The notes under the pieces: model-generated
What the model was told of the DNA's origin: nothing
Databases searched by the model: none
The model's input: the letters and a program-made list of their open reading frames with translations, nothing else
DNA from: Escherichia phage SSL-2009a
Reading direction: 5' to 3' (one strand)
DNA: 44,899 nucleotides
Sequence record: NC_012223.2
Position numbers and translations under genes: made by a program
Shown here: positions 6,227 through 43,369 of the stretch, one piece after another
Numbering within the stretch: the first letter of the stretch is position 1
Layout of the letters: every line of letters begins with the position of its first letter

Positions 6227-6250
6227 TGCAACCAATATAGCGCAACCAAT
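6227..6250 (-). promoter_or_regulatory. paired ATTGGTTGC half-sites (minus-strand orientation) upstream of gene 5884-6198
   Basis: tgcaaccaat (6227-6236) and gcaaccaat (6242-6250) on + strand; TATATT between them on the minus strand; member of the recurrent dyad motif family. Confidence 0.45.
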
Positions 6251-6282
6251 TCCAGCAGCGCAAGCGAATTTTGCGATTATTT

Positions 6283-6295
6283 TTATCACTGATAA
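6283..6295. promoter_or_regulatory. 13-bp palindrome TTATCA-C-TGATAA in divergent control region
   Basis: Perfect inverted 6-bp arms seen directly; lies between divergent genes 5884-6198 (-) and scaffold (+). Confidence 0.3.
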
Positions 6296-6352
6296 TATTA
6301 AGGCGTGAAGTCAAGCGGGTGGCCCGCTTTGCCACAATCCCAGGGGGATAGC

Positions 6353-7054
6353 ATGAAACTTACTAAAGCAGAATATGACGCGTTGCCAGAAGGCATGAAG
6401 GCTTTATTTGTTGCCGATGGTGATGGGTATAAATCCACGTTCATGACCGCCGAAGAAGTACAGGCGGAGATCAAGGGTCTGAAAGACAACAACGCGAAGC
6501 TGGTGAGCGAGAAGAAAGCAGAAGCCGAACGTCGCGCCGAAGCCGAGCGCCTTGCGAAAGAGAAAGAGGAAGCCGCCGCGCGCAAAAATGGCGACCTCGA
6601 AGCGATTGATAAATCCTGGAAGGATAAGTTCGCAAAACATGAAGCGGACACATCGGGGAAAATCGAAGCCTACCGCAAGCAGATCCACGACTTAACCATC
6701 GGCAGCGCTGCCAAAGATTTGGCCTCGAAGCTGTTCGGTAAGAATGCCGGCATCATGCAACGCCACGTTATGGACCGCCTCACGCTGGAAGACGGCGAGG
6801 ACGGCAGCTTGAAGGTGCGGGTACTGAAGGACGGCAAACCCTCCGCGCTGACTATGGAAGAACTAGAAAAAGAGTTCCGTAGTAACGCCGATTTTGCATC
6901 CGTCCTGGCTGGCACGCCAGCCGGTGGTGCTCCGAGCAAACCGACGCAGGTCGTCGAAGATGTGAAGTCGAAAATCACTATGGGACACAGCTTCGGTATC
7001 ACTGACTTGACGAAACAGGCCGGGGATATCATTGCTAAAATGGGCGACGAGTAA
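6353..7054 (+). CDS. scaffolding protein (putative)
   Basis: 233 aa from ATG 6353 (SD AGGGGGA); highly charged, predicted coiled coil (AEAERRAEAERLAKEKEEAAARK); immediately upstream of major capsid gene. Confidence 0.55.
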   Translation: MKLTKAEYDALPEGMKALFVADGDGYKSTFMTAEEVQAEIKGLKDNNAKLVSEKKAEAERRAEAERLAKEKEEAAARKNGDLEAIDKSWKDKFAKHEADTSGKIEAYRKQIHDLTIGSAAKDLASKLFGKNAGIMQRHVMDRLTLEDGEDGSLKVRVLKDGKPSALTMEELEKEFRSNADFASVLAGTPAGGAPSKPTQVVEDVKSKITMGHSFGITDLTKQAGDIIAKMGDE

Positions 7055-7060
7055 GCAGGC

Positions 7061-7086
7061 CGCCCGCGAAAGCGGGCGATTTTGCG
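7061..7086 (+). terminator. rho-independent terminator after scaffold gene
   Basis: CGCCCGC-gaaa-GCGGGCG followed by ATTTTG. Confidence 0.55.
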
Positions 7087-7151
7087 AGCGCGTAAATCTA
7101 AGGTAACATTAACGGCACTGGGCGAATGCTCACAACTCAAAGGATTCTAAT

Positions 7152-8252
7152 ATGTCTTTAACAGTGTTCCAGCGTAAACTCGTCACCGCGGTTACGCAAA
7201 TGATTCCCGATAACCTGAACGTGTTCAACGCTGCCGCTAACGGCGCTGTTGTTCTCGGTACGGGTGAAGTGCTTAAGGACGTTGTAGAAAAAATGTCCGT
7301 AGGCTTGATCGCCAACCTCGTTACCGACCGTAACGCCTATGCCCCTGTCGGTACACCGGCAACCGCAAAAGTGCTGGCGCGTATGCTGACCAACTCGGTT
7401 AACCTTTCCGCGAAAGTGGGTCCTGTTGCGATCACGAAGGCCATGATGGCTAAAATCGAAACCAACGTTAACAGCGTTGCGGCTGAGATTGCGGCACAGG
7501 CAACTCAAGCGATTATGCTGCACTATCTGAAAGCTGGTATCGGCGCGGGTAAAGCGGCTATCGAAAGCAACACAGCGGCAAACTACACCCAACCGGCTCG
7601 CGTTGACGGCGTTGGCGGTCGTACATTCCCGACCCTGGCAGACTTCCCGCTGGCGGCTTCTAAGTTCGGCGATCAGGCGTCTTTGATTAAGTCATGGTTT
7701 ATGGACGGCGTTACCTGGGCAAACTTCATCGCTTACCAGGCGCTTCCATCTGCCGAGCAGGTATTCGCGATCGGCGATCTGCAGGTAATGGGCGATGGCC
7801 TGGGCCGCCGTTTCATTATCTCCGATGCCGCTGCCGATGCAATGGGCGCGGGTAAAATGCTGGGTCTGGTCCCTGGCGCGGTTGCAGTTACCACCAACGG
7901 CCTTGATATGCTGGCGCAGGAAAAAGGCGGTAACGAGAACATTGAGCGCTGGTGGCAGGGCGAGTTCGACTTCAACGTGGCTGTTAAAGGCTATCGTCTG
8001 AAGGCGTCCGCTCGTACTCCGATCGAAGGTGTACGCTCGTTCAAACTGGACGATATCACCACTAAGGATAACTGGGAACTGGATCAGGGCCAGGTAGACA
8101 ACGCCCCGGCAACCGTTCAGGATGTTGGCGCTGTTGGTGACGGCGATACTAAAGGCCGTCGTAAGACCCAGGCCGCACAGGCAGTGCCTACCCGTCACAT
8201 CAAGGAAACCGCTGGCGTACTGGTTACGCTGACTGCGACCACAGCGTCCTAA
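7152..8252 (+). CDS. major capsid protein
   Basis: 366 aa ORF after scaffold, strong SD, Ala/Gly/Val-rich composition, followed by strong terminator; position typical for the major capsid gene. Confidence 0.75.
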   Translation: MSLTVFQRKLVTAVTQMIPDNLNVFNAAANGAVVLGTGEVLKDVVEKMSVGLIANLVTDRNAYAPVGTPATAKVLARMLTNSVNLSAKVGPVAITKAMMAKIETNVNSVAAEIAAQATQAIMLHYLKAGIGAGKAAIESNTAANYTQPARVDGVGGRTFPTLADFPLAASKFGDQASLIKSWFMDGVTWANFIAYQALPSAEQVFAIGDLQVMGDGLGRRFIISDAAADAMGAGKMLGLVPGAVAVTTNGLDMLAQEKGGNENIERWWQGEFDFNVAVKGYRLKASARTPIEGVRSFKLDDITTKDNWELDQGQVDNAPATVQDVGAVGDGDTKGRRKTQAAQAVPTRHIKETAGVLVTLTATTAS

Positions 8253-8269
8253 CAGGCGCACATCCCAAA

Positions 8270-8297
8270 GGGGCGGGCTTATGCCCGCCTTTTTTAT
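8270..8297 (+). terminator. rho-independent terminator after capsid gene
   Basis: GGCGGGC-ttat-GCCCGCC followed by TTTTTTAT. Confidence 0.65.
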
Positions 8298-11820: not shown

Positions 11821-12145
11821 CGGAGCGGGACAGGCGGGACGTCCCGTTTTGTCCCGCCACCACTAAACCGCATATATACTCACTTTCATTGCATAAATTA
11901 AAAGCGGGACAGGTGCGCTGTCCCGATCTGTCCCACCCCCAAAATGTGAATATCTATTCGATTTTCGTGCATAAAACAAACGGGACAAAAAGCGGGACAG
12001 AATTGGGCGGGACAAAGCGGGACAGCACCCCTGTCCCCGCCAGTGCTGCCGCGGGTTTTAGCCGATCGGGACAGGCGGGACAAAGCCAAGTCTTTCAGAC
12101 TAGACGGGGGTCAATGGCCCCCCTCGTCTGAGACTGAATAAGGTT
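11821..12145. repeat. iteron/palindrome-rich element A (GCGGGACA units, GGGACAG-N5-CTGTCCC palindromes, terminal GC hairpin)
   Basis: At least 9 direct and 5 inverted copies of GCGGGACA-like units; about 150 bp (11978-12137) nearly identical to 39700-39860; hairpin 12101-12130. Confidence 0.7.
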
Positions 12146-22312: not shown

Positions 22313-22345
22313 GTATTACACCGCTCGACCAGGATTGCAACCAAT
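22313..22345 (-). promoter_or_regulatory. candidate sigma70-type promoter for the lipoprotein gene (extended -35 ATTGGTTGCAAT, -10 TAATAC)
   Basis: On the minus strand: ATTGG-TTGCAA, 16 nt spacer, TAATAC; TTGCAA at 22335-22340, -10 at 22313-22318. Confidence 0.45.
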
Positions 22346-25184: not shown

Positions 25185-25206
25185 TGCAACCAACCTATTG
25201 GTTGCA
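25185..25206. promoter_or_regulatory. 22-bp perfect palindrome TGCAACCAA-ccta-TTGGTTGCA (operator-like)
   Basis: Seen directly; overlaps the stop codon of the HAD gene and lies just 5' of gene 24622-25173; TATAGT follows on the minus strand. Confidence 0.55.
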
Positions 25207-27087: not shown

Positions 27088-27121
27088 AATATAATGCAAC
27101 CAATATGATTATGCAACCAAT
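27088..27121 (-). promoter_or_regulatory. candidate promoter with two direct ATTGGTTGCAT sites (-35 TTGCAT, 17 nt, -10 TATATT)
   Basis: atgcaaccaat at 27094-27104 and 27111-27121 (+ strand); on the minus strand the first copy supplies TTGCAT, the second fills the spacer, TATATT at 27093-27088. Confidence 0.5.
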
Positions 27122-29816: not shown

Positions 29817-29823
29817 GTATTAA

Positions 29824-30028: not shown

Positions 30029-30062
30029 ACTATACTGCTACGCGACCAATTCAGCAACCAAT
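30029..30062 (-). promoter_or_regulatory. candidate promoter (-35 TTGCTG within ATTGGTTGCTG, 17 nt, -10 TATAGT)
   Basis: On the minus strand; -35 overlaps the last codons of the VRR-NUC gene, -10 at 30034-30029, upstream of the zinc-ribbon gene. Confidence 0.4.
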
Positions 30063-30504: not shown

Positions 30505-30508
30505 AATA

Positions 30509-32967: not shown

Positions 32968-32982
32968 TTTTCATTGTCCTAT

Positions 32983-33006: not shown

Positions 33007-33025
33007 TGAATAGTGGGCTTTGCCC

Positions 33026-33805
33026 TTAACGGCGGCGACGTTTACGTGGCGCTTCGTCTTCGTCGTCGTCCTCATCTTCGTCATCGCGTGGCTTACGACG
33101 TTTACGAGGTTTTTCATCTTCGTCGTCTTCGTCATCGCGGCGCTTGGACTTTTTGGACTTGCGCGGCTTGTCGTCTTCGTCATCGTCATCACGACGTTTT
33201 GACTTTTTGGACTTGCGCGGGCTTTCATCTTCGTCATCGTTGTCCAGGTCTTCGTCTGAGCACGAAGATCCGCCACCGCCGAAGGCTTCGCCGTCATCAC
33301 GGAAGCGCAGACCCAAAAGACCAGCACCGAGTCCCTTGCCGTTGGTATTGTTCCACGCCCAGATATCGAGGGACACGTTGCAATAACAACCGGAGTAGAT
33401 CTCCTGGCCTTCGATCTCGTCGCCTTCTACGGTCAGACCTTGTTCAGTCTGCTTCTCGCCGAGTGACGTTTGAATGATCGGCTGCTTGAACGATTTGGCG
33501 TTGATGTACAACATGCCTTCGAATTCTTCGGTTACTTCGTCGCGCTCGTCACCGTCGCGAACTGCGCATTCCTTAGAATCCTGGGCGTAGTGGCGGTCCA
33601 TCCACTTATCGGCATTCTTCTCGGATTTCAGCTTGTCGGTGAGCACTGCGCGCGCTGCCGCTTCCACTTTGTCCACCTGCGGATCTTCTTTATCCAGAAG
33701 AATCACGGCACGGTATGCCGGTTTTTGTCCATCCTGTTTAGGGGTATCACGTTCCCAAATTTTCAGGAAACATACGCGCACTTTTTTCAGGTTGACTTTA
33801 GCCAT
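33026..33805 (-). CDS. single-stranded DNA-binding protein candidate (T7 gp2.5-like) with repetitive mixed-charge C-terminal tail
   Basis: 259 aa from ATG 33805 (SD AGGAA); N-terminus MAKVNLKKVRVCF resembles gp2.5-like SSBs (by recollection); C-terminal 70 residues are tandem D/E-rich and KPRKSKKSKRR-type repeats. Confidence 0.5.
   Translation of the reverse strand: MAKVNLKKVRVCFLKIWERDTPKQDGQKPAYRAVILLDKEDPQVDKVEAAARAVLTDKLKSEKNADKWMDRHYAQDSKECAVRDGDERDEVTEEFEGMLYINAKSFKQPIIQTSLGEKQTEQGLTVEGDEIEGQEIYSGCYCNVSLDIWAWNNTNGKGLGAGLLGLRFRDDGEAFGGGGSSCSDEDLDNDDEDESPRKSKKSKRRDDDDEDDKPRKSKKSKRRDDEDDEDEKPRKRRKPRDDEDEDDDEDEAPRKRRRR
33030..33245 (-). repeat. tandem coding repeats (about 55-bp period) in the SSB C-terminal tail
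   Basis: ttggactttttggacttgcgcgg repeated at 33144-33166 and 33198-33220 with flanking gtc/ttc triplet runs. Confidence 0.55.
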
Positions 33806-33861
33806 TTTCCAATTCCTCATTTTCACATGTATCGGGGTTATTGTGAGCCACCCCGTTCGGC

Positions 33862-33886
33862 TTGGTTGCCAATCTACTTGGTTGCG
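33862..33886 (+). promoter_or_regulatory. two direct TTGGTTGC half-sites (plus-strand orientation) between minus-strand genes
   Basis: cttggttgcc (33861-33870) and cttggttgcg (33877-33886), spaced 16 bp; orientation opposite to the flanking genes. Confidence 0.35.
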
Positions 33887-33895
33887 CCTAAGCGG

Positions 33896-34138
33896 TCAAG
33901 CACTTTCATTAAAAAGATTTCTGGTCACGTAGTTGGTGGCGTTCTCAATCCAGCTTAACGGCGGTCGGTCGATGTTCTTCTCCACCCAGTGGACGGCAGC
34001 GTCACTATATCCGTCATCAAGCCAGCGGGTCGGATGGCGAATCATCCACGCCACCATTAACACGCCTTGCACGCAATGCAGGATAAAGCCCAGCGCGCCG
34101 AGTAAAAACATCAATAAGATTGCAAATACTTTATTCAT
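33896..34138 (-). CDS. small membrane protein (two predicted TM helices)
   Basis: 80 aa, SD GAGGA; hydrophobic segments FAILLMFLLGALGFIL and VLMVAWMI. Confidence 0.45.
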   Translation of the reverse strand: MNKVFAILLMFLLGALGFILHCVQGVLMVAWMIRHPTRWLDDGYSDAAVHWVEKNIDRPPLSWIENATNYVTRNLFNESA

Positions 34139-35561
34139 TGCCTAAGTCCTCGTCAGTGGCCTCCGACCACGCAGGGCGCGGGTCGTCGATTGGTGCTAAC
34201 ACCGGTTTAGCGGGTGCGCGTGTGATTTTAGCACACAGCTTCGCCCACACTTTCGGTTTTTCGTCCTTCAGTACCTTCTCGGCATCTGTCGGGCTGAGCA
34301 ATGTTTCTTTGTACATCACATCGCGCTTGATCCGGGCCTTCGTGAAGATTTCAATCACTTCGCTCTCGTCCGCCCACTTACGGATCCCTTCCTTACCGGC
34401 AACCATCTTGAGGCCCAGCGATTCGCCATCGCCCGCCATGACCGCCTTGAATACCGCGGACTCGATAGCCTTGATGTGCTGGCGCATTGCGTCCAGGCCT
34501 TCATAAGCCTTGCGCAGTTCCGCAGCGCTCATAGCGCCTGGTGTGGATTCCTTCTTGCCTCGTTTAGCACGTCGTGCCGCCTTCCGGGCTTCGCGGGCCA
34601 TATTGCGATCGTGGTTGGCGCATTCTTCCTCGGTCGCCTCGCTCACGTCGTCGCCCAGGTCTTCGTCGGTTGCCGTTGGTGGTGTCATAGTGTCGATTGC
34701 GGCCTTCGCCCGGACGCTGCACTGGTCCGCAAATCTGCACCACTGGCACGCATCGACGCTGGGCCGGAAGTCCGCGCGGGTTAGTCCCTTCTTGCCGCGG
34801 GCGTATGCATCGAGCGCGGCGATAGCACGCTTGGACGCAAACTTCGCGAATATCTCCAGGGCTTCTACCGAAATATCCCATTCCGACGCCCCACCGCAAT
34901 ACGGCTGGAAGATAACCAGGCGCACGGACGTAATGTCGTACATGGTTTGCAGCTTGCGCAGCAGGCCGAGCGCGTACAACATAAGCTGTTTGTTTTCTTT
35001 CGCCTCGACCTTATGCCGCCCGGTCTTCAGGTCGCCAACAATCAGCATGTACGTTCCGTCGGTCTTTTTCATGACCATGACCATATCGGCAGTACCGAAC
35101 GTTTTAATCCTGTCGCCGTCGATCTCGAAGCCTGAGTGAAGGACGCGGGTAAGATCGGCGCGCATCTCAAGCTGGACAAACTCCGCCACTTCAAGGAGCG
35201 GACGCCAGTGGTCGATGTATGCATCGCACTGCTTCACCATGTCGTCGTTGACCAGTACGCCGCCTTTCGGTGCTTTCGGGTGGGCCTTTACTGGCCCCTT
35301 GCCTTCGTTCTCGACGTAGCACCCTTTATACGTCTTAGCGGTTATTTTCTTCTCACCGGCGATAATGCGGTTTAGTACCACCTCAGATACGGTGTGCATA
35401 CTCGTACCGTTAATCGCGGCTTGCCCGGATTCGTTCGGGATATCTTTTTCTACCACCAGGGCGGCGGGACACCCCATCCATTTTTTAGCACCGGATGGGC
35501 CAAGTAATGAGTGTTCCGTATTACTACCTGATTGCGTTTTACGTTTTGGTTTAATCGCCAT
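34131..35561 (-). CDS. Cas4-like / RecB-family PD-(D/E)xK exonuclease
   Basis: 476 aa; N-terminal Cys (WMGCPAA), nuclease core GDLKTGRHKVEAK with QLMLYAL (QxxxY), C-terminal Cys triad CQWCRFADQC consistent with a Cas4-type Fe-S cluster. Confidence 0.65.
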   Translation of the reverse strand: MAIKPKRKTQSGSNTEHSLLGPSGAKKWMGCPAALVVEKDIPNESGQAAINGTSMHTVSEVVLNRIIAGEKKITAKTYKGCYVENEGKGPVKAHPKAPKGGVLVNDDMVKQCDAYIDHWRPLLEVAEFVQLEMRADLTRVLHSGFEIDGDRIKTFGTADMVMVMKKTDGTYMLIVGDLKTGRHKVEAKENKQLMLYALGLLRKLQTMYDITSVRLVIFQPYCGGASEWDISVEALEIFAKFASKRAIAALDAYARGKKGLTRADFRPSVDACQWCRFADQCSVRAKAAIDTMTPPTATDEDLGDDVSEATEEECANHDRNMAREARKAARRAKRGKKESTPGAMSAAELRKAYEGLDAMRQHIKAIESAVFKAVMAGDGESLGLKMVAGKEGIRKWADESEVIEIFTKARIKRDVMYKETLLSPTDAEKVLKDEKPKVWAKLCAKITRAPAKPVLAPIDDPRPAWSEATDEDLGNE

Positions 35562-35749
35562 TATTCCACCCTTGAAAACTGAGCAATGTAATATTCATGT
35601 TTAACACCGGCCCGCTTCGCGGCTTCGTTCATGGTAGCCGCCAAACCTCGGGCTTGAGTCCAGCAGCAATTCCAGTTCTGATTCATAACAATTTCTGGTT
35701 GCTCATCGCCGGTAATACGGCAACGAAATAAAACAAAGAATATAGCCAT
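35561..35749 (-). CDS. hypothetical small protein
   Basis: 62 aa, SD GGGAGA; stop overlaps the start of the Cas4-like gene (TAATG). Confidence 0.35.
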   Translation of the reverse strand: MAIFFVLFRCRITGDEQPEIVMNQNWNCCWTQARGLAATMNEAAKRAGVKHEYYIAQFSRVE

Positions 35750-36001
35750 TTATTTTGTCTCCCAGCGGTCAATTGTTTTTGCTTCGGATGCAACTGCGAA
35801 GCGAACATATTCCAGATTAGAATCCGCCCAAATATAAAAGTCGGGGTTAGTAAATGTGGTGCGCTTAATTTGCGCGGGGGTGTTGCGGCGTTTATCAATT
35901 ACAGCAACGCGCGATTGAAAGCTGCCGATGCGTTCGAATAACCAATAGTACGGGCGCTGGTCGCGGGAATCCACCGCCTCGATTAGCGTGAAGCGTGCCA
36001 T
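35750..36001 (-). CDS. hypothetical protein
   Basis: 83 aa, SD GAGGA 7 nt before ATG 36001. Confidence 0.45.
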   Translation of the reverse strand: MARFTLIEAVDSRDQRPYYWLFERIGSFQSRVAVIDKRRNTPAQIKRTTFTNPDFYIWADSNLEYVRFAVASEAKTIDRWETK

Positions 36002-36012
36002 TGTCTCGTCCT

Positions 36013-36041
36013 CTAAAAAGAGGCCCGCAGATTAGCGGGCC
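36013..36041 (-). terminator. intrinsic terminator on minus strand after the first gene of the leftward operon
   Basis: GGCCCGC-loop-GCGGGCC followed by UCUUUUU on the minus strand; overlaps the leader of the next gene. Confidence 0.45.
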
Positions 36042-36049
36042 GGATAATA

Positions 36050-36592
36050 TTAGTCTTCCAGTTCGAAATAAGTTTCGACGATTTCTTTTAGCTCGGTGTG
36101 GAAGTCTTCGACGTCGTCGTCTTCCAGTTTAGCGATTGATTTGATCTCGAACGATTCCAGCAGGTCGTCGAATTCGTCGTTCGCATCATCATCATCGCCG
36201 CCTGCAATAATAGCGGCATACTGTTTGATTTCGTCGCGCATCTCTGCCAGCGGGTCGGCTTCTTTCTTACCTTTGCCTTTCGCTGGTGCTTTTTTACCCT
36301 TCGCCGGTTTTTCGTCTTCGGCTTCATCATCATCGTCGTCATCCTCTACGACTTCTTTTTTGGCCTTTCCTTTAGACTTGGTTTCTTTTGCCGCGCCTTT
36401 TTTCGCCTTGGGCGTATCTTCGACTTCGTCCTGATCGTCGTCTTCGACTTCAGTCTCCGGCTTTGCCTTGCCTTTCTTAGCGGTGCCGTTTGCTTTTGGG
36501 CCTACGGCAGCGCCCACAGTTTCATAATGTTTAGCGATGGTTTCCAGTGCTACTACGCCGCGAGTGATCAGGTTTACGATTTGCTCAAACAT
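36050..36592 (-). CDS. highly charged acidic/lysine-rich protein (first gene of leftward early operon)
   Basis: 180 aa from ATG 36592 (SD GGAG 7 nt upstream; the six-frame ORF extends to 36820 but the upstream part lacks a start context); alternating poly-D/E and K-rich blocks. Confidence 0.5.
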   Translation of the reverse strand: MFEQIVNLITRGVVALETIAKHYETVGAAVGPKANGTAKKGKAKPETEVEDDDQDEVEDTPKAKKGAAKETKSKGKAKKEVVEDDDDDDEAEDEKPAKGKKAPAKGKGKKEADPLAEMRDEIKQYAAIIAGGDDDDANDEFDDLLESFEIKSIAKLEDDDVEDFHTELKEIVETYFELED

Positions 36593-36795
36593 GGTATATC
36601 TCCGATTGGTTAAGTTTAGGTGTCGGCAGTAAACTTCGTCGGTGGCCTTAACATAGTGCCAGGTTACGCGTTCTCCCTTTCGGGTAGTGGACCTGGTTAT
36701 ATAATCACGGTTGGGAATCCTGACACTTCGATCCGGCCCCTGCGTTGCCCCTCTCCAGTTTGCGTCCTGCATCCTGTCGACGAGGTGAATATTAG

Positions 36796-36805
36796 ATTGG
36801 TTGCA
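36796..36805 (+). promoter_or_regulatory. ATTGGTTGCA motif copy in the divergent control region
   Basis: Exact 10-mer; TTGCAG could serve as a -35 with TAATTT about 16 nt downstream. Confidence 0.35.
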
Positions 36806-36825
36806 GAAGGGAGTCAACAACTAAT

Positions 36826-36862
36826 TTAAAAAAAAAGCGCCGAAGCAAAATGCGACGGCGCT
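36826..36862 (-). terminator. terminator-like hairpin with A9/T9 tract in the divergent control region
   Basis: AGCGCCG-13 nt loop-CGGCGCT preceded on the + strand by AAAAAAAAA (U-run on the minus-strand transcript); no annotated gene upstream on the minus strand. Confidence 0.35.
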
Positions 36863-36932
36863 AACCAATAAGAGACAATGAGACGGGAGTATTATTACAC
36901 GCGTGCGCGCCCGTTTCAATATTCCAAAGGAG

Positions 36933-36961
36933 TTGACACCCTGCGGTTTTAGGTGTAGTTT
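36933..36961 (+). promoter_or_regulatory. candidate sigma70 promoter for the rightward early operon (TTGACA, 17 nt, TAGTTT)
   Basis: Consensus -35 TTGACA at 36933-36938, 17-nt spacer, weak -10 TAGTTT; about 30 nt upstream of ATG 36993. Confidence 0.4.
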
Positions 36962-36962
36962 C

Positions 36963-36979
36963 GTTGGTCATTAACCAAC
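36963..36979. promoter_or_regulatory. inverted repeat GTTGGT-catta-ACCAAC overlapping the leader of the HTH gene
   Basis: Perfect 6-bp arms; the arm sequence matches the core of the ATTGGTTGCA family. Confidence 0.35.
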
Positions 36980-36992
36980 CGGAGACAGAATA

Positions 36993-37322
36993 ATGAATAT
37001 CAACGACGCAATCGAAATGTTAACTAAGACTGTTTGCAGTGAGACTAGCCGGTCGTGGGCTTATACCGATGCCGTTGGGGCGGTGCTATTTGAGGTCGAG
37101 CGCCTGCGCAGTGTAGAAAAAGAATTACGCGCCAGGCTGGAATTGCTCAACGGTACAGCGGCGAGCAAGCTGCAGAAGCACAATGAAGAAATGGAAGAAT
37201 ATAAAAAACAGGTTATCAGTTTGCGCGCCGAGGGCAAATCCTGGGCGATGATTGCCGAGTTGACCGGAATTAATCAGAGCACAGTGCGCTCCTGGGTACG
37301 CAATAATAAAACTTCTAAGTAA
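36993..37322 (+). CDS. helix-turn-helix DNA-binding protein (putative transcriptional regulator)
   Basis: 109 aa, SD GGAGA; C-terminal HTH-like segment SWAMIAELTGINQSTVRSWV. Confidence 0.55.
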   Translation: MNINDAIEMLTKTVCSETSRSWAYTDAVGAVLFEVERLRSVEKELRARLELLNGTAASKLQKHNEEMEEYKKQVISLRAEGKSWAMIAELTGINQSTVRSWVRNNKTSK

Positions 37323-37332
37323 GGTCACGGCA

Positions 37333-39597
37333 ATGAGCTTAATTAAATTCGCTGTAACAAGACCCGCTAAAAAAGGCGAAAAAGCCAGGGCGGAAAACTT
37401 CCAGATGACTACCGAAGAGTTTTTCGAATTTATCAATGATGCGAAAGAAATCTCCTCGGTGCATATCAACAAAACGGAAGATAAAGCCGAGTATGCACGC
37501 CGCAAGCGTAAGGCCGACGGCATCGTGGCGTATACCAGTGACGGATTGCGTCGCAAGACCAGTGCGGTGGACCGCTCGATCCTGTTCTTCGATATTGACC
37601 GTACTGACACCCGCACCCTACGCCGCTGCCGTAAGGCGTTCACCGACGCGGGACTGGAGCACGTCTTCCACACCACAACCGGCGACCGTCACCCACTGAA
37701 AGGTGGAACGCGTTGCGCTCGCTTCCTTGTGTTGACCGACAAGCCTGTACCGGCTGAAGACCTGGGCCGTGTCCAGTATGCGCTATTACACCAACTGGGC
37801 CTGTCAGACGTGGACTTCGACGACTGCACGAAAGACACAAACCGCCTTATGTACCTGCCACACCAGCAGTCTGTTATTAAGTGCCACTATGGCAAGCGCG
37901 CCCGCGTCCGTCGTCTGCTCCGCCAGGCTGACAAGCTGGGAGTTGAGAAAGAGGAAGTCCGCCGCGAACTGACCCAGGGCGACGACGCAGTGGCAGACGG
38001 CATTCTGGACTGGTGCTTCCAGGCAGGATTCGAGGAGTTATCTTCCGGTCGCGGTTATGAAGTGCCGTGCCCGAACGAACATCTGCACAGCGGCGAAGGG
38101 TCAACGGCTATCATGGTCAAGGATGGCGAGATCCGTTTCAAGTGTATGCACACCGGCAACGAGTGTTGCTCGGAACTGAATAGACACCAGCACCTGGCGC
38201 TACGTCTTATAGGTATCCCGGACCACCTGAACGTCGAGCCACACAATATGTCCCGTAAGCAAATCGCCGCCATCCTGCCGGGGTTGGACGACGAGGAGGT
38301 CGAATCCTTATACGAACATATTGTTGATGCGGTTGGTGACGGCGAAGAATACGGCGTGTGCACCGATGCGGATCTGGATAACGAGCCGGTCGCACTATTC
38401 AGTAAGCACGACCCGATTATCGAGGGGTTGATTAACTTTAAATCGACCTGGTATCTCGCCGGTGAGTCGAACATTGGTAAGTCTTTCTATGTGCTGGGGC
38501 AAATGGCGTCAGTATCTGCCGGTATTCCGTTTGGGGGGGCGAAGGTCGTCCAGTGCCACAACTTCTATTTCGATGCGGAAGGTGGCGAAGCCTCAAATCA
38601 GCGTAAAGAAGCATTGCAGATTAAATACGAGCACGACCTGGACAAGCTGCACATTATCGATCTGCAATCACGCGGCTGGGATATCACCAGCAAATCCGGC
38701 TTGCGCGAAGTTATCAGCTTCATCAACCGCACCGCTAACGGCGAACCAGTTGGCCTGGTGGCGTTCGACTCACTCAACCAGACTGTTGCGCTGCGGTCCG
38801 CCGATGCTAAACCGTTTGACGAGAACAACGCCAGCGATATGGGTGAAGTGGTCAAAGCGCTGAAAGCCATTGCGGAAAATACAGGTGGCAGTGCTGGCGT
38901 CATCCACCACCCGGCGAAAGGTGCAAACGGCAGCAGAACCCCACGCGGATCCGGTGCGCTGCATGGTGCTGTCGATTCAGCTTTCTTCCTGGAACAGCCA
39001 GACGACAACCAGCCAGGCCAATTGAACCTGTATCACGAAAAGTCACGTAACGGCATCAAGCAAGCGCCGCGTGGCTTCGTCCTGCTCAAGTGCAAGGTGA
39101 AGGTAGATCTCCGCAAGTCGGAAGCGTTCGCGTCGCACCAGTCCACCAGCACCGGGCCGGACTTCGGCGACGTCGTTGCCGGTTGGGACGTCAAACCAAT
39201 TGCGTCCACGCCACGCGACGAGACTCTATACCTCGTACCGGTCGCCCTGGCACCGTTCGCTATAGAACAGGCGAAGGCCGCAGGGAAAGCCGCAGTTAAG
39301 GAAGAGAACACCGCAGGACCGCGCAACGAAAAAGAGAAAGTGCTTTATGCGGCCCTGGAAAAACTGATGGAAGATAACCCGGACCATACTGGATTCAGTA
39401 AATCGGCAATCGTCCGCCAGGCGGGACTCGCGAAGGGGGGCACTTCGACGAAGGCAATCGACGATATGGTCGAGCGCGGCGTGATTGGTTTCTATACAGA
39501 TCCGCACACCGGGGCCATCTATGGGTCGTCGAATTTAGTTATCAAATCGGATATCCCCATTACGCTTTCGGCGACCGATGACGACCTGAAAGATTAA
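37333..39597 (+). CDS. DNA primase/helicase-type replication protein (P-loop ATPase with zinc-binding region)
   Basis: 754 aa; Cys/His cluster CPNEHLHSGEG...FKCMHTGNECC; Walker A GESNIGKS and Walker B-like LVAFDSLNQ; immediately followed by iteron locus B. Confidence 0.7.
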   Translation: MSLIKFAVTRPAKKGEKARAENFQMTTEEFFEFINDAKEISSVHINKTEDKAEYARRKRKADGIVAYTSDGLRRKTSAVDRSILFFDIDRTDTRTLRRCRKAFTDAGLEHVFHTTTGDRHPLKGGTRCARFLVLTDKPVPAEDLGRVQYALLHQLGLSDVDFDDCTKDTNRLMYLPHQQSVIKCHYGKRARVRRLLRQADKLGVEKEEVRRELTQGDDAVADGILDWCFQAGFEELSSGRGYEVPCPNEHLHSGEGSTAIMVKDGEIRFKCMHTGNECCSELNRHQHLALRLIGIPDHLNVEPHNMSRKQIAAILPGLDDEEVESLYEHIVDAVGDGEEYGVCTDADLDNEPVALFSKHDPIIEGLINFKSTWYLAGESNIGKSFYVLGQMASVSAGIPFGGAKVVQCHNFYFDAEGGEASNQRKEALQIKYEHDLDKLHIIDLQSRGWDITSKSGLREVISFINRTANGEPVGLVAFDSLNQTVALRSADAKPFDENNASDMGEVVKALKAIAENTGGSAGVIHHPAKGANGSRTPRGSGALHGAVDSAFFLEQPDDNQPGQLNLYHEKSRNGIKQAPRGFVLLKCKVKVDLRKSEAFASHQSTSTGPDFGDVVAGWDVKPIASTPRDETLYLVPVALAPFAIEQAKAAGKAAVKEENTAGPRNEKEKVLYAALEKLMEDNPDHTGFSKSAIVRQAGLAKGGTSTKAIDDMVERGVIGFYTDPHTGAIYGSSNLVIKSDIPITLSATDDDLKD

Positions 39598-39607
39598 ATT
39601 TTGCGCG

Positions 39608-39653
39608 CATTGGTTGCCATTTTGTGTGCTTTTAGCTGGTCGCATTGGTTGCC
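39608..39653 (+). promoter_or_regulatory. two direct CATTGGTTGCC motifs downstream of the primase gene
   Basis: Copies at 39608-39618 and 39643-39653 (35-bp spacing), directly upstream of iteron locus B. Confidence 0.4.
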
Positions 39654-39699
39654 GTGTAGTGTAAATATAGTGCATAGTTATGCAATAAAACTGCATAAA

Positions 39700-39860
39700 G
39701 TAAGCGGGACAAAAAGCGGGACAAACCAGGGGCGGGACAAAGCGGGACAGCACCCCTGTCCCACCCCGGATGACGCGGCCTGGCGGGGAGCGGGACAGGC
39801 GGGACAACTCCCAGTCTTTCAGACTAGACGGGGGTCAGCGGCCCCCCTCGTCTGAGACTG
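39700..39860. repeat. iteron/palindrome-rich element B (second copy of the 150-bp GCGGGACA element; putative origin-associated)
   Basis: Six direct GCGGGACA units, one GGGACAG-cacccc-CTGTCCC palindrome, and the same terminal hairpin as locus A; near-identical to 11978-12137. Confidence 0.7.
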
Positions 39861-40014
39861 CATAAAATCCGGGATTGCAAAATACACGGCAGCATGTTGC
39901 GGATTGCGGTCGTCGCTGAACTAGGCAACCAATGCGAGTTGCAGAACGGTGGGTGGGAAATGCAGTTTGCAGTCACAGCAGATAGCGATCAACTTTTTCA
40001 TGCGCATGATTAAT

Positions 40015-40055
40015 ATTGGTTGCATTCGTGCCAGCACCCTGCTAGATTGGTTGCA
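40015..40055 (+). promoter_or_regulatory. candidate promoter/operator (ATTGGTTGCAT as -35, TAGATT -10, second ATTGGTTGCA over -10/+1)
   Basis: TTGCAT 40020-40025, 17 nt, TAGATT 40043-40048; second motif copy 40046-40055; SD GAGGA 40065-40069; ATG 40077. Confidence 0.5.
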
Positions 40056-40076
40056 CACCAACATGAGGACTGAACA

Positions 40077-40367
40077 ATGAAAAAATTAATCTGGAATTAC
40101 GCAATGGCCCTGGCGAAGCTGGTTGAAGTTAAACACACACACGGCAGCGCACCCGAGGCGCGCCAGGTAGCTCCGACCTGGTATGCGATCATGAACGCGA
40201 CCGCGGACCTGAAAGACCCAGAACCGCTGCGCATGGCTATCCGGGTCTACGCGATGGCATTTGCCCGTGAGCGCATGGCGTATCGCTTCGGGGTCGGTGA
40301 GACGGCAGCGGCAAACGTCGCCCGGATTGCAGCCCAACGTGAGCTATTCGCCCAGCTTGCAAAATAA
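40077..40367 (+). CDS. hypothetical early protein
   Basis: 96 aa, SD GAGGA 7 nt upstream; first gene after the origin-like region. Confidence 0.5.
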   Translation: MKKLIWNYAMALAKLVEVKHTHGSAPEARQVAPTWYAIMNATADLKDPEPLRMAIRVYAMAFARERMAYRFGVGETAAANVARIAAQRELFAQLAK

Positions 40368-40376
40368 GGGGCCAAA

Positions 40377-40646
40377 ATGGACCGCAGACGCGCGAAACAG
40401 CTTTCGTGGCATATTCCACTGCATTGCGTACGAATGTGGGCTAAGAATGCGTCTGAGGGCGATTCTGTGTTCTGGAGCTATCGCGACGACGTTAAGCCGT
40501 TGACGCAGACTCGCTACTTGCACCAGTTCGCCGCGCAACATGATTTCTATGTGCGGACCTCCTTGCAACCAATGGGGATCCGTATTACATTACGCCGGAA
40601 GCCCGCAGTCGAGCGGGTAGGCAAACACTGGAGACTGAGCAAATGA
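40377..40646 (+). CDS. hypothetical early protein
   Basis: 89 aa, SD AAGGGG; basic (Arg/His-rich). Confidence 0.45.
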   Translation: MDRRRAKQLSWHIPLHCVRMWAKNASEGDSVFWSYRDDVKPLTQTRYLHQFAAQHDFYVRTSLQPMGIRITLRRKPAVERVGKHWRLSK

Positions 40647-40786
40647 CACCAGCACTAATGGCGGGATTCTCGCAGAAGTTTATTTCTGTTGATGCCTGCA
40701 TAGCAGATTATGAGATGGACGGCATCGCTACTGTGTGCGATGGCGACACGAAAACTGCCGACGAGATTGAGGAGACAGAACAATGA
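40643..40786 (+). CDS. hypothetical small acidic protein (47 aa)
   Basis: ATGA overlaps with both neighbours, SD GGAGA 8 nt upstream; found by manual translation (below ORF-track cut-off). Confidence 0.4.
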   Translation: MTPALMAGFSQKFISVDACIADYEMDGIATVCDGDTKTADEIEETEQ

Positions 40787-41400
40787 AATTACTATTCCGC
40801 CGCAAGCATGATGGTCGCATCCTGAAGCCGATCCAGACCCTGGATTCCTACGTCCGCTTACAAAACGCGGCAGGCAATCGGGTGTGGCGGGCGCCGAAAC
40901 ACACGCTGCCGCAGTTCTTCGACGTACTCACTCACGATATCGAGCGCGGCGATGTGCTGCGTGATATTCGCGACGGCAGTATGTGGGTCGTCGAGTATGT
41001 CGGGCTTCATGGCCTGCGTATGCAAAACCGCAAGGATGGCGTCGCCGGTATGACTTACTTCGGCCTCGTAAATTACGAGCGAGTGGGTCGCAAATACAGC
41101 CTTCGTGACCGCCAGCCGCACGAGCGCGCGAACGTCATAGCGGATGCCGTTAACCGCGTAACGCATGATGTGGCGCAAAAGACGCGTGTGGAGTTCCGCA
41201 AGTCACAGCCAGCCTATGCAACCTATGACGCGAGCAAAGTGATGGATCCGATACGCCAGGCGACGCATGCGATTATTAATCGCTTTGATGCCGTGACGAA
41301 TGCACAGCGCCATGCGCAGGAATACGGTTTTGGATTCATCCGGGTGGAACGAGACGGCAGCATGAAAGCCATCGACCCGCGCTCGGTGATTCTGAAATGA
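40783..41400 (+). CDS. hypothetical protein
   Basis: 205 aa, SD GAGGAGA; no motif recognised. Confidence 0.5.
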   Translation: MKLLFRRKHDGRILKPIQTLDSYVRLQNAAGNRVWRAPKHTLPQFFDVLTHDIERGDVLRDIRDGSMWVVEYVGLHGLRMQNRKDGVAGMTYFGLVNYERVGRKYSLRDRQPHERANVIADAVNRVTHDVAQKTRVEFRKSQPAYATYDASKVMDPIRQATHAIINRFDAVTNAQRHAQEYGFGFIRVERDGSMKAIDPRSVILK

Positions 41401-41537
41401 GTGCGACGACCCGTGATATGCTTCAGCACAACCGCTTTGAGATAGGCGGTCGGGTGTTTCGCAATTACTTCGTGGCGCGTGCATGGGCGCGCCATATTGG
41501 CAAACCGGAAGGGGCAATTCGATGTTACACGATGTGA
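41397..41537 (+). CDS. hypothetical small protein (46 aa, speculative)
   Basis: ATGA overlap with upstream gene; overlaps the start of the next gene. Confidence 0.3.
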   Translation: MSATTRDMLQHNRFEIGGRVFRNYFVARAWARHIGKPEGAIRCYTM

Positions 41538-41809
41538 TTTATTGGTTTGGTTTGATCGGGGGGCTGTGCCTGCTTACTGCGGTGCTGTTGGGCGTCCTGT
41601 TATTCGTAGCATGGCCCGCCGTGGAAGCCGCCAGCATTACCCGCATGACGTTCGAAATATACAAGCGCCGTGGAATCACGGAGCACCCAACCAGGTTGCG
41701 CATGTGGTGGCTGTGGTATCGGGATATGATAGGCGGGCGAACATTCGAAGCCGTCCGATCATCCGGGTGGGAGTGGAAAGGCGTCGGCAAGTGGTCCGTT
41801 TTCGATTAA
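41522..41809 (+). CDS. membrane protein (lysis-cassette-associated, function unknown)
   Basis: 95 aa from ATG 41522 (SD AAGGGG); one N-terminal TM helix and Trp-rich C-terminal part. Confidence 0.45.
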   Translation: MLHDVIYWFGLIGGLCLLTAVLLGVLLFVAWPAVEAASITRMTFEIYKRRGITEHPTRLRMWWLWYRDMIGGRTFEAVRSSGWEWKGVGKWSVFD

Positions 41810-41826
41810 TTATGCAAGCGTGATAT

Positions 41827-41862
41827 AGTCCCAGTGAGCTAAAACTTACTGGGACTTTTTTA
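41827..41862 (+). terminator. strong intrinsic terminator abutting the holin start codon
   Basis: Perfect 9-bp stem AGTCCCAGT/ACTGGGACT with 11-nt loop, then TTTTTTA running directly into ATG 41862. Confidence 0.55.
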
Positions 41863-42152
41863 TGGATAAGCTAAACGAGTGGCTATTCGCCCTGGCATGT
41901 CTGGCGGGTGGCTTCGTAGGCGCACGCATTCATGGTGAGGCTACGAAGGGGCCGCTAAACTTCGTTTTGTATGTGGTAGTCGGCTTCCTGTGTGCCATAT
42001 TTGGCGCACCGGCTATTGCCGAGTGGGCTGGTTTGTCGGGTGAGCGCACTGTCGCCGGTTTGGGCTTCGTAACCGCAATCTTCTGGATGCCAATCGCCGA
42101 CCGGATCAGGGAGACTATTGCGTCGTTCCGACTTCCGGGGGGTGCAAAATGA
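41862..42152 (+). CDS. holin-like membrane protein
   Basis: 96 aa with about three hydrophobic helices; immediately upstream of a second membrane protein and the endolysin. Confidence 0.5.
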   Translation: MDKLNEWLFALACLAGGFVGARIHGEATKGPLNFVLYVVVGFLCAIFGAPAIAEWAGLSGERTVAGLGFVTAIFWMPIADRIRETIASFRLPGGAK

Positions 42153-42394
42153 TTATCTCCGTCCTGTTGTTTGTTATCATCGGGGCTTCGTCCCTGTTTA
42201 ACGTGTATGCGCCGTCCGTCCAGGATGGCATTTTCGGTCGGGTGCTGTATCTGCTAACGGCAATGATCTGTATTATCGGACTGTTGCAAACAGGAGACGT
42301 ATCTGATACCACCTGGACCGCGTTAATCTGGCTGTTTGCATTGCGCACCCTGCGTAATGCTGTTTTGAATGGGGTAAAACATGCGATTCAGTGA
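42149..42394 (+). CDS. holin/antiholin-like membrane protein
   Basis: 81 aa, two to three TM helices; ATGA overlap upstream, overlaps endolysin start. Confidence 0.45.
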   Translation: MIISVLLFVIIGASSLFNVYAPSVQDGIFGRVLYLLTAMICIIGLLQTGDVSDTTWTALIWLFALRTLRNAVLNGVKHAIQ

Positions 42395-42872
42395 CAACGG
42401 TCTAAGATTCACGGCAGCATGGGAGGCTTTCAGCCCGGTGCCGTATTTCGCGACCAAGAAAGAGCAGGCCCGCGGCCTGTACACCTGGGGTTATGGTCAT
42501 ACCGGCACTAACCCGCCGCGAAGCATTACCCGAGAGGAAGCGCTGGCGCTACTTAAGCGCGATGTGGCGTATGCCGAGGACTGGGTTAACAAATACGCAC
42601 ATCCGAGCATTAACCAGGCGCAATTCGACGCGCTGGTGGATCTGGTAATCAATGCCGGTCCTGGTCCGATCGTACCGGATGACGTCGCGAATGATTTCGA
42701 TGATGCGGTGCGACTGGGCAACTGGGCGAAGGTCCGTGCTACGCTGCCGCTGTTCCGCAAGCAAGGCGGGGAAGTGCTTAAGGGTCTGGTACGCCGTGCA
42801 ATCGGCAGACAGGCGTTGTTTGATGGTAAGCAGTGGGACGTTGCCGAGCGAATCGGTCGTAACGCTGCATAA
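42381..42872 (+). CDS. endolysin (phage lysozyme, T4-lysozyme-like fold)
   Basis: 163 aa; conserved Glu (WEAF) followed by GLYTWGYGHTG, resembling the E...GYYTIGIGH signature of T4-type lysozymes. Confidence 0.65.
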   Translation: MRFSDNGLRFTAAWEAFSPVPYFATKKEQARGLYTWGYGHTGTNPPRSITREEALALLKRDVAYAEDWVNKYAHPSINQAQFDALVDLVINAGPGPIVPDDVANDFDDAVRLGNWAKVRATLPLFRKQGGEVLKGLVRRAIGRQALFDGKQWDVAERIGRNAA

Positions 42873-42888
42873 TACGAGGTGACACAAT

Positions 42889-43290
42889 ATGTTAGATTCG
42901 ATCTTGCGACGTAAAGAACGCATTATCAAGACACTGCCCGCAGTGCAGAACCCAGAAGCGCGCCGCATCCTGGCGGGGGATATGAATGTATCAGGCGTCT
43001 TTGACAAGGCCGTGCCTGAAGGGACGCCGGTGGCTAGCGCTACCGTCACCATCACGCCAGCTACCGCCGCAGTTGGTGAGACAGCCGCCGCGACTGTTGC
43101 CATCCTGCCATCCGGAGCGACCAACAAGACCGGGTCGTGGGTGTCGGCTAACCCTAACCGCGCCTCAATCAATCCGACTACCGGAGAAATCACAGCGAAA
43201 GCAGCGGGTAACGTCCGCATCGTTTGGGTGGCGTCCGACGGTAGCGGGGTGCAGGCTGACGCAGGCTTCACAGTAACGGCAGCCGCATAA
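42889..43290 (+). CDS. Ig-like (Big_2-type) domain protein
   Basis: 133 aa; C-terminal region rich in T/A/V/G (ATVTITPATAAVGETAAATVAILPSGATNKTG...GNVRIVWVASDG); SD GAGGTGA. Confidence 0.45.
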   Translation: MLDSILRRKERIIKTLPAVQNPEARRILAGDMNVSGVFDKAVPEGTPVASATVTITPATAAVGETAAATVAILPSGATNKTGSWVSANPNRASINPTTGEITAKAAGNVRIVWVASDGSGVQADAGFTVTAAA

Positions 43291-43297
43291 ACCAACA

Positions 43298-43324
43298 AGC
43301 CCGGATAATACCGGGCTTTTTATT
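43298..43324 (+). terminator. rho-independent terminator after Ig-like gene
   Basis: GCCCGG-ataata-CCGGGC followed by TTTTTATT. Confidence 0.6.
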
Positions 43325-43331
43325 GCTTGAC

Positions 43332-43369
43332 TTGCAACCAACATAGGGGCCATACTGCAACCAACCAAT
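43332..43369. promoter_or_regulatory. two TGCAACCAA motif copies (reverse orientation)
   Basis: ttgcaaccaa 43332-43341 and tgcaaccaaccaat 43356-43369, just upstream of the micro-ORF SD. Confidence 0.4.

Follow-up and report, generated by a model that had tools for sequence, protein, structure and literature searches.

A conserved asymmetric 8-bp box in predicted promoters of the non-structural genes of Escherichia phage SSL-2009a, possibly read by a phage-encoded regulator

Several phages serve many copies of an operator with one small regulator. In mycobacteriophage L5, gp71 reportedly acts at an operator and at additional ‘stoperator’ sites; L5 is temperate, gp71 is its immunity repressor, and the stoperators have a single orientation relative to transcription and block elongation. 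The conserved inverted repeats of phiC31 are 17-bp dyads for an immunity repressor, and the Cox boxes of P2 are asymmetric 9-mers in direct repeat, whose reader is also the excisionase of this temperate phage. The lambda CII sites (TTGC-N6-TTGC) straddle the -35 element of PRE, PI and PaQ, and the T4 MotA box (TGCTTtA, 9 bp, centred at -30) is served by a protein of double-wing fold that depends on AsiA. Here we analyze Escherichia phage SSL-2009a (NC_012223.2, 44,899 nucleotides, referred to as the window), in which an asymmetric 8-bp box, TTGGTTGC, recurs within the predicted core promoters of the non-structural genes. On balance we lean towards these boxes being the operators of a phage-encoded regulator, a reading that rests on sequence and on predicted structure.

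A recurrent intergenic motif had been noticed in the window as the 10-mer ATTGGTTGCA, and this part of the original prediction was borne out. The 10-mer has 9 exact copies in the genome against 0.11 expected, and 18 copies against 3.47 expected with up to one mismatch; this tabulation and the comparison with coding and shuffled sequence, both proposed at the outset, showed enrichment in non-coding DNA and over shuffles. The invariant core is the 8-mer TTGGTTGC, found mostly as aTTGGTTGCa once all copies are turned to one orientation; the base before it is A in 13 of 18 boxes and the base after it A in 11 of 18, otherwise C, G or T. The core has 21 copies, where 300 dinucleotide shuffles gave 2.0±1.4 (about 10-fold enrichment), and GCAACCAA headed an unbiased ranking of non-coding 8-mers by count. 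Of the 21 core copies, 15 lie wholly in non-coding DNA, in a genome of which 7-8% is non-coding (7.3% with the corrected gene table; binomial P ~1e-12). Three more overlap the last 4-17 bp of a gene beside an intergenic gap, and the last three lie deep in coding sequence (13528, 16875 and 40565), which is about chance level. The roughly 18 boxes form 11 clusters spread across 37 kb, and the structural genes are without boxes. All sites listed in the original prediction were recovered within 1-3 bp, except that 36605 holds only TTGGTTAA, with three mismatches to the 10-mer; an exact coding copy at 40564 had been overlooked.

The motif is not the dyad it was first taken for, because its core is asymmetric and most pairs are direct repeats (seven of eight, with a spacing of 12-35 bp). 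TTGGTTGC is neither self-complementary nor set in inverted pairs at a fixed spacing, the features that define a dyad operator. The self-complementary TTGCAA, proposed as the core, arises only where the base after the core is A, and that flank varies among A, C, G and T. The sole inverted pair, 25186/25198, had been described as a perfect 22-bp palindrome at 25185-25206; its two perfect 9-bp arms, TGCAACCAA and TTGGTTGCA, in fact enclose a non-palindromic CCTA (9+4+9). Known consensus sites for sigma54 (-24/-12, GG-N10-GC), PdhR, CytR (GTTGCATT), NtrC and FNR were also compared with the box and rejected for a misfit in spacing or sequence.

The surroundings of every box cluster were searched systematically for their best-scoring -35/-10 pair. 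At nine of the 11 clusters this gave a sigma70-like promoter facing the downstream gene, with 16-18 bp between the hexamers and a score of 8-9.5 of 12-13. These nine head non-structural units, several of them bounded by terminators; the other two clusters (39610/39645 and 39925), in the repeat region B described below, have no convincing promoter. The boxes span -40 to +2 of the nine predicted promoters, which fall into two classes. In class I (P6239, P22317, P25183, P27093 and P30034 on the minus strand, P40043 on the plus strand) the boxes are oriented with transcription. The upstream box lies at -39/-38 to -32 and provides TTGCAx as -35, with only 3 of 6 matches to TTGACA, 17±1 bp from TATATT, TATAGT, TAGATT or TAATAC. 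Extra direct boxes stand at -22 to -15 (composite TTGGTTGCxnTATAnT) and at -8 to -1 (composite TAnATTGGTTGCA). In class II (P33876 and P36794, minus strand; P43351, plus strand) the promoter has its own near-consensus -35, TTGACT or TTGACC, and the boxes run opposite to transcription, in the spacer (-29 to -14) and across the start site (-6 to +2). The clusters, with one coding copy, are as follows.

6228..6249, minus strand: two direct boxes, 6242-6249 (-22 to -15) and 6228-6235 (-8 to -1), at P6239 (minus strand, TTGCGC 6263-6258, 18-bp spacer, TATATT 6239-6234; the -35 TTGCGC is not part of a box); downstream lie leftward variable cargo 5884-6186 and then the Nmad5 gene 5080-5844
22337..22344, minus strand: single direct box, -39 to -32, giving -35 TTGCAA, at P22317 (-10 (TG)TAATAC/AATACT, 22318-22312, minus strand); between a lipoprotein-like gene and the tail-fibre gene, predicted to drive the former leftward (22063-22281)
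25186..25205: inverted pair, 25186-25193 on the minus strand (direct, -22 to -15) and 25198-25205 on the plus strand, at P25183 (minus strand); -35 TTGCAA (25207-25202) is the complement of box 25198-25205, -10 TATAGT 25183-25178; leftward unit 24622-25173 and 24005-24580
27096..27120, minus strand: tandem direct boxes 17 bp apart, 27113-27120 (-39 to -32) and 27096-27103 (-22 to -15), at P27093 (minus strand); -35 TTGCAT from the box, -10 TATATT 27093-27088
30042..30061, minus strand: box 30054-30061 (-39 to -32, -35 TTGCTG) and variant box TTGGTCGC 30042-30049, at P30034 (-10 TATAGT 30034-30029, minus strand); leftward unit of Lar-like gene, helicase and methylase
33862..33885, plus strand: two boxes inverted to the promoter, -21 to -14 (spacer) and -5 to +2, at P33876 (minus strand, TTGACC 33899-33894, 17-bp spacer, TAGATT 33876-33871); predicted to drive a unit of gp2.5-like single-stranded DNA-binding protein and DNA polymerase
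36797..36804, plus strand: one box inverted to the promoter, in the spacer at -22 to -15, at P36794, the predicted main leftward early promoter (minus strand, TTGACT 36817-36812, 17-bp spacer, TAATAT 36794-36789), a marked promoter in the HK578 record
39610..39652, plus strand: two direct boxes 35 bp apart, where region B opens on the left, just past the stop codon of the helicase-primase gene
39925..39932, minus strand: lone box where region B ends on the right; it points left, into the GCGGGACA cluster, and lacks a convincing -10
40016..40054, plus strand: direct boxes 40016-40023 (-39 to -32, -35 TTGCAT) and 40047-40054 (-8 to -1), at P40043 (-10 TAGATT 40043-40048, plus strand); rightward unit from 40077, variable cargo and then lysis genes
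43334..43364, minus strand: two boxes inverted to the promoter, -29 to -22 and -6 to +1, at P43351 (plus strand, TTGACT 43327-43332, 18-bp spacer, CATACT 43351-43356); upstream of a small open reading frame (ORF) and the metallophosphatase gene
40565..40572, minus strand: box inside coding sequence 40377-40646, conserved in relatives, of doubtful function and about chance background

The second box of the pair at 39610..39652 abuts a -10-like TGTAGT/CATAGT with a weak promoter score and points into the GCGGGACA cluster. At P43351 the boxes directly follow a terminator at ~43300-43325. At P27093 an intrinsic-terminator hairpin on the minus strand (~27085-27060, GGGTGTCC...GGACGCCC with a run of five T) begins 2 nt after the -10 and overlaps the predicted transcription start; its stem is kept through compensatory changes in three relatives (L002, L003 and L011). 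Because the hairpin and T-run begin right after the -10, this element would stop read-through from upstream, and transcripts starting inside the stem would escape it.

The proposal that the box serves as a -35 held, with a 16-18 bp spacer, for 22337, 27113, 30054 and 40016, and for 25198 on the opposite strand. Only these five of the 18 boxes are at -39/-38, the rest lying at -22, at -8, and, inverted, at -29 to -14 and -6 to +2, so that position and orientation relative to the -10 are not fixed over all copies in the way an extended -35 element would have them. Generic sigma70 consensus sites are not enriched in the genome (16 against 14.6 expected, and 9 against 12.0 expected). An independent sigma70 scan recovered three of the nine box promoters: three of the four intergenic sites that it flagged at 21000-40999 carry boxes, and the fourth, 36919-36891, is box-free.

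Conservation of the boxes was assessed in related phages. Six complete Dhillonvirus genomes (L001-L006), down to ~80% nucleotide identity, have them at matching intergenic positions, and so do four metagenomic contigs from distant phages of conserved gene order (L008, L010, L011 and L013), whose replication proteins (exonuclease, helicase-primase and DNA polymerase) are only 65-85% identical to those of the window. Over eleven orthologous alignments of 7-11 sequences each, box columns matched the window at 94% and other columns at 76% (Mann-Whitney P = 5e-19). The box columns of P6239 (7 genomes) and P40043 are 100% conserved, ATTGGTTGC.GA.TTGGTCGC is invariant at P30034 in 10 genomes with drifting flanks, and GCTTGAC.TGCAACCAA is invariant at P43351 in 9 genomes. 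Spacer boxes are conserved too, though their position makes no demand on sigma70; at P36794 the spacer bases beside the box vary and the box does not. In the distant relatives each orthologous promoter keeps its class, and box number and spacing change: new spacings of 9, 13 and 16 bp appear, the distance from the second box to the -10 is 1, 4 or 5 nt depending on the relative, and the spacer of the P36794 orthologue is taken up by two inverted boxes that overlap. L003 has a tandem box pair at the 22337 site, and in L013 ATTGGTTGC is the commonest 9-mer, with 11 copies in 20 kb. When viral contigs were scanned for tandem boxes, multiple separate hits among the matches listed came only from Dhillonvirus-sized contigs, the other contigs giving single matches and several multi-match arrays. 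The one array examined (in L060) is a coding repeat and was rejected as a box array. The boxes are thus over-represented, non-coding, overlap core promoters and are conserved beyond their flanks, which is the pattern of an operator set.

Several further features were observed around the boxes. The second boxes at P6239 and P40043 each extend to TTGGTTGCACACCAA (TTGGT-N5-ACCAA), and palindromes of this form, with half-site centres 10 bp apart, occur at 6228-6242 (minus strand), 40047-40061 and 36964-36978. All three are directly downstream of a -10; two extend full boxes and the third follows the promoter of the helix-turn-helix (HTH) gene described below. The leaders of P6239 and P40043 start with ACACCAACA. 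Five extra half-boxes (TTGGTT/AACCAA) lie in non-coding DNA at 22299, 36606, 36863, 36973 and 43363; in four of them the sense strand of an mRNA leader carries AACCAA, 1-15 nt ahead of the Shine-Dalgarno sequence, and the one at 36863 reads UUGGUU on the strand of a putative small RNA. They could represent weak half-operators, or else an RNA element of the leader. Immediately after P6239 (5080-6186) and P40043 (40077-40646) lie genes that differ completely among isolates and resemble ‘moron’ cargo slots; the cargo gene 5080-5844 has the Nmad5 ‘nucleotide modification associated’ domain (E = 7e-62). At 21007-22046 the window has two rightward ORFs (121 and 223 aa) where relatives have a leftward membrane-protein gene of ~966 bp, and P22317 and the lipoprotein-like gene 22063-22281 are retained despite this replaced neighbour.

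A candidate reader of the box is encoded in the rightward arm of the genome, with the following features.

36993..37322, plus strand: candidate box-binding protein, 109 aa, with a C-terminal HTH
36933-36961, plus strand: HTH gene promoter TTGACA-17-TAGTTT, the best consensus promoter in the genome, without a perfect box
36964-36978: palindrome TTGGTCATTAACCAA after the HTH gene promoter, containing the degenerate inverted box TTAACCAA

Among 20 small non-structural ORFs this protein was the only one with a match to a DNA-binding domain in Pfam. Its residues 65-105 match Sigma70_r4_2 (PF08281) at 27.4 bits, above the cut-off of 25.7, with HTH_23 and HTH_28 scoring about as well, and PHROGs labels the family ‘transposase’, without functional evidence. 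An AlphaFold (AF2) model, with a mean pLDDT (predicted local distance difference test) of 87.7, has a short helix, a long helix (21-79) and a three-helix HTH; Foldseek searches gave only weak matches to generic small HTH domains (resolvase, GerE/NarL, sigma region 4, IstA) or to coiled coils. Lacking region 2, and with only residues 65-105 matching an HTH/region 4 profile, the protein itself cannot be a sigma factor; a pairwise BLASTP comparison with E. coli RpoE was not significant.

The family of this protein is as narrowly distributed as the box, which is consistent with binding, and it is one of the few small proteins present in every box-bearing phage examined. It comprises 24 clusters at 90% identity, most of them on ~45 kb contigs, and 3 full-length clusters at 50% identity among 1.8 billion proteins; four homologues inspected (P0013, P0014, P0022 and P0025) are all upstream of the helicase-primase gene in syntenic phage contigs. 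A 19-member alignment shows hardly any variation over the C-terminal 60 aa, which contain the recognition helix STVRSWVRN; this would be in keeping with an invariant box. The HTH is invariant in 18 homologues, and the L013 orthologue P0025 alone has a changed, though conservatively so, recognition helix (STIKNWIYR). By contrast, the N-terminal 45 aa (36993-37130) are hypervariable or swapped for unrelated sequence, which suggests a modular or fast-evolving domain that binds a partner or is exposed to host defence. In L008, L010 and L011 a perfect GCAACCAA stands between the -10 and the ribosome-binding site of the HTH gene, a position typical of autorepression; HK578 and L013 have no GCAACCAA at this gene. 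TTAACCAAYCGGAGAYA precedes both divergent genes of the window, 36592 (minus strand) and 36993 (plus strand).

Being conserved and diverse in position and orientation, the boxes behave as predicted binding sites and not only as a -35 variant. Of the two readings first offered for them, an extended -35 family explains only five boxes, and operators of a phage regulator fit all positions. We somewhat favor this second reading, in which the boxes are operators, within core promoters, of a sequence-specific DNA-binding regulator encoded by the phage; should it be right, the HTH protein of 36993-37322 is a rather likely reader of TTGGTTGC (aTTGGTTGCa). This protein would probably dimerize via its long helix, and two flexibly linked HTH heads could then reach the two boxes of a pair; such a variable reach would fit the predominance of box pairs. 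One to three boxes within the core (-40 to +2) of sigma70-type promoters head nine non-structural units (replication and recombination genes, moron cargo, and units leading into the lysis and metallophosphatase genes), so box occupancy would put all of them under one factor, itself made from a strong early promoter that is box-free or has a weak box. Protein bound at the boxes would stand on the -35, within the spacer or across the start site, and its default effect would therefore be promoter occlusion in competition with RNA polymerase, as repression or as feedback that includes the regulator’s own gene in some relatives. Box orientation also tracks promoter class and the class I -35 elements are weak, and for these reasons a dual role is kept in view, with activation at the six TTGCAx promoters (direct boxes) and repression at the three TTGACx promoters (inverted boxes); within the regulator reading, repression alone appears slightly the better choice.

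Several observations weigh against this interpretation. The link to the HTH protein is circumstantial, and no covariation was seen in the one orthologue that diverges, the box of L013 being unchanged despite its differing recognition helix. An 8-mer that is invariant across diverged phages could equally mean a conserved host reader. A pure repressor would also shut the rightward promoters at 40043 and 43351 toward the lysis and late genes, which leaves late expression unexplained, and a repressor able to block anywhere does not require the perfect correlation between orientation and promoter class. Nor do the sites count as independent observations, since the promoters of different genomes are orthologues and some of those within the genome are paralogues. 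In addition, literature searches on the box motif and on Dhillonvirus transcription (promoters, RNA-seq, early genes) found nothing.

The correlation of orientation with class, which holds without exception, also speaks for a rival model in which an early-made, sigma-4-like HTH protein at the -39 (and -22) boxes recruits or re-targets host RNA polymerase, turning on weak TTGCAx middle promoters by in effect replacing sigma70 region 4, with the inverted boxes shutting the TTGACx early promoters. We regard such activation as possible, if doubtful. Six promoters with only 3 of 6 matches in the -35, a fixed box register (-39/-38) and orientation, a match to Sigma70_r4_2 above the curated cut-off, and a promoter for the regulator that is the best consensus in the genome without a perfect box would all suit it, and an early-made activator of middle genes is classic virulent-phage logic (T4 MotA/AsiA, phi29 p4). 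TTGCAx in the role of the -35 is, however, enough to explain the -39 register, direct boxes at -8 to -1 cover the start site and so are not at an activator position, the second box lies at 1, 4 or 5 nt from the -10 depending on the relative, and no AsiA- or MotA-like partner was detected among the 20 small ORFs with Pfam and PHROG; moreover, TTG with a -10 matching at 5 of 6 positions may be active unaided. A stronger form, which we consider unlikely, makes the HTH protein a free-standing surrogate of sigma region 4 that docks on RNA polymerase (core or sigma) via the invariant LELLNGTAASKL helix, reads TTGGTTGCA in place of a -35 and re-targets the sigma70 holoenzyme to the six box promoters, the opposite orientation blocking the three early promoters. 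If true, a virulent siphophage would achieve sigma appropriation with a single protein, whose hypervariable N-terminus would be evolving under host-defence pressure. A literature search on -35 recognition by extracytoplasmic function (ECF) sigma factors turned up nothing useful for the box motif.

A dedicated binder is dispensed with altogether if the box is a phage-specific extended -35 cassette read by the sigma70 holoenzyme and spread by duplication. Five boxes do give a -35 at 17±1 bp from TAnnnT hexamers, the promoters at 6239 and 40043 share a longer identical TA.ATTGGTTGCACACCAACA that suggests paralogy, and the same conserved promoters head different cargo genes in different phages. 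Yet 13 of 18 boxes are not at -35, so that this accounts for only 5 of 18, and inverted spacer boxes and those at -8 and +1 match the -35 boxes in conservation, with adjacent spacer bases varying; the TTGG half upstream of the hexamer is also invariant, and we know of no sigma70 contact there. We therefore hold it to be quite improbable. Boxes as replication-initiator iterons, by which the HTH protein would mark origins and the association with promoters would be secondary, seem very unlikely: the HTH gene is immediately upstream of the helicase-primase gene in all relatives, five boxes lie in a 480-bp region after the latter and the SO-1 record marks that region as a repeat region, but the boxes are dispersed in 11 clusters over 37 kb, nine of them promoter-tied, instead of being clustered in tandem, and the GCGGGACA family, clustered at just two sites, fits an iteron much better. 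Least credible of all, in our view, is a conserved host protein (e.g., GntR-, PdhR- or CytR-like) through which the phage would plug into a host signal. Such a reader would account for an 8-mer that stays invariant even where the phage recognition helix has diverged (L013) and for the three TTGGT-N5-ACCAA palindromes (6228, 40047 and 36964); PdhR has ATTGGT as its half-site (ATTGGT-N3-ACCAAT), and the CytR octamer includes GTTGCA. Against it, the palindromes have an N5 spacer where PdhR sites have N3, the majority of boxes are single half-sites, and the flank after the core varies (CA, CC, CG, CT), unlike CytR octamers; we know of no E. coli site that matches the invariant combination of TTGG and TGC. 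A role of the conserved cassettes as recombination linkers was considered as well, and cargo swapping is probably a consequence of conserved promoters and not their function.

A second repeat family was found in the window, (a/g)GCGGGACA(a/g), with 18 copies, of which 14 are non-coding and nearly all on the plus strand. It is clustered in tandem at two loci, as iterons are, which are the ‘region A’ and ‘region B’ repeat regions of the Sodalis phage SO-1 record.

11825-12083: GCGGGACA cluster between the tail-chaperone and tape-measure genes
39704-39807: GCGGGACA cluster just after the helicase-primase gene

From their sequence and arrangement these clusters look like iterons (an origin or cis-replication region) or the sites of another regulator. 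Both regions share a 46-bp element, gtctttcagactagacgggggtca..ggcccccctcgtctgagact, at 12090-12135 and 39814-39859, which forms a G/C hairpin within a longer inverted repeat and has CTGCATAA repeats alongside (12181, 12198, 39691 and 39858).

The window is a whole Dhillonvirus genome of ~44.9 kb, HK578/EK99P-1-like at ~92% identity, and is organized as follows.

56 to ~24000: structural genes, rightward, with two short leftward inserts
24005-36592: replication and recombination block, leftward
36593-36992: control region, divergent
36993 to end: HTH protein, helicase-primase, small genes, lysis genes and metallophosphatase, rightward

In the control region, the leader of the leftward early operon includes 52 bp (~36705-36756) that are 92-94% identical to unannotated DNA in unrelated phages, namely ~51-kb coliphages and Salmonella phages (slyngel, swan01, ityhuna and tunus). 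The 192-nt leader 36594-36785 folds no better than shuffled sequences (z = -0.61), and Rfam gave no match in the window, nor in 36500-37000 at a relaxed threshold. A possible small RNA lies at 36828-36919 (minus strand), with a promoter TTGAAA-17-(TG)AATAAT (36919-36891) and, ~55 nt past it, a hairpin GCGCCG...CGGCGC followed by nine T (36861-36828). Relatives keep the hairpin and T-run with a different stem sequence, and matches to Rfam were sub-threshold only.

A megablast search with 24000-44000 matched 185 phage records, 94 of them with a query coverage of at least 80% and an identity that is mostly 90-95%. All 94 are Dhillonvirus siphophages of E. coli, Shigella and Sodalis, including HK578, JL1, EK99P-1, SO-1 and BASEL isolates. 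Neither an integrase nor a repressor is annotated in the records of Dhillonvirus relatives, and from the lack of an annotated integrase we conclude that the SSL-2009a type of phage is virulent. Dhillonviruses (HK578, JL1, SECphi4/18 and several BASEL phages) are much used in phage-defence and therapy work, and no account of their transcription control was found in the literature; the genome papers on YD-2008.s, vB_EcoS-B2 and Edwardsiella phages do not describe the box motif. One 8-bp box at nearly every predicted non-structural promoter offers a map of transcription units and a candidate master regulator, provides a source of short, portable promoter and operator parts, and explains why the same conserved intergenic cassettes stand beside different cargo genes in different isolates. 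As a further example of many operators under one phage factor, the system would be useful and unsurprising, unless the HTH protein does act as a sigma region 4 surrogate.

Among described systems, the boxes would work most like multi-operator phage regulators (L5 gp71 sites, phiC31 conserved inverted repeats, P2 Cox boxes), and the class I register resembles those of lambda CII and T4 MotA boxes; each of these families nevertheless has a defining feature that the box system lacks, be it single orientation and a temperate lifestyle, TTGC-N6-TTGC spacing, MotA/AsiA proteins or dyad symmetry. With L5 gp71 it shares a short, asymmetric, many-copy site found mostly in short intergenic regions, one L5 copy lying over an early -35, and a small HTH reader (here a candidate) without need for a dyad; it differs in that the boxes are inside core promoters, direct at six and inverted at three, and the phage is virulent. 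Lambda CII is comparable in having TTGC-containing direct repeats over a poor -35 and a small (~100 aa) phage HTH reader (again, a candidate here). In contrast to the N6 of CII sites, TTGC units here are 9, 12-17, 23, 31 and 35 bp apart, the unit is 8-10 bp, and boxes occur also at -22, -8 and +1 and inverted; no sequence similarity of the HTH protein to CII was detected. As at T4 middle promoters, an asymmetric box replaces the -35 with the sigma70 -10 kept, and an early-made factor could switch a gene class together, but the box sequence differs and MotA boxes are not known to occur in spacers or at +1. The C-terminus of the HTH protein scores above the curated cut-off for ECF/sigma-70 region 4.2 (PF08281), whereas the protein has only 109 aa and no region 2. 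With phiC31 and P2 Cox the boxes would share the principle of many operator copies at early promoters for one small phage regulator.

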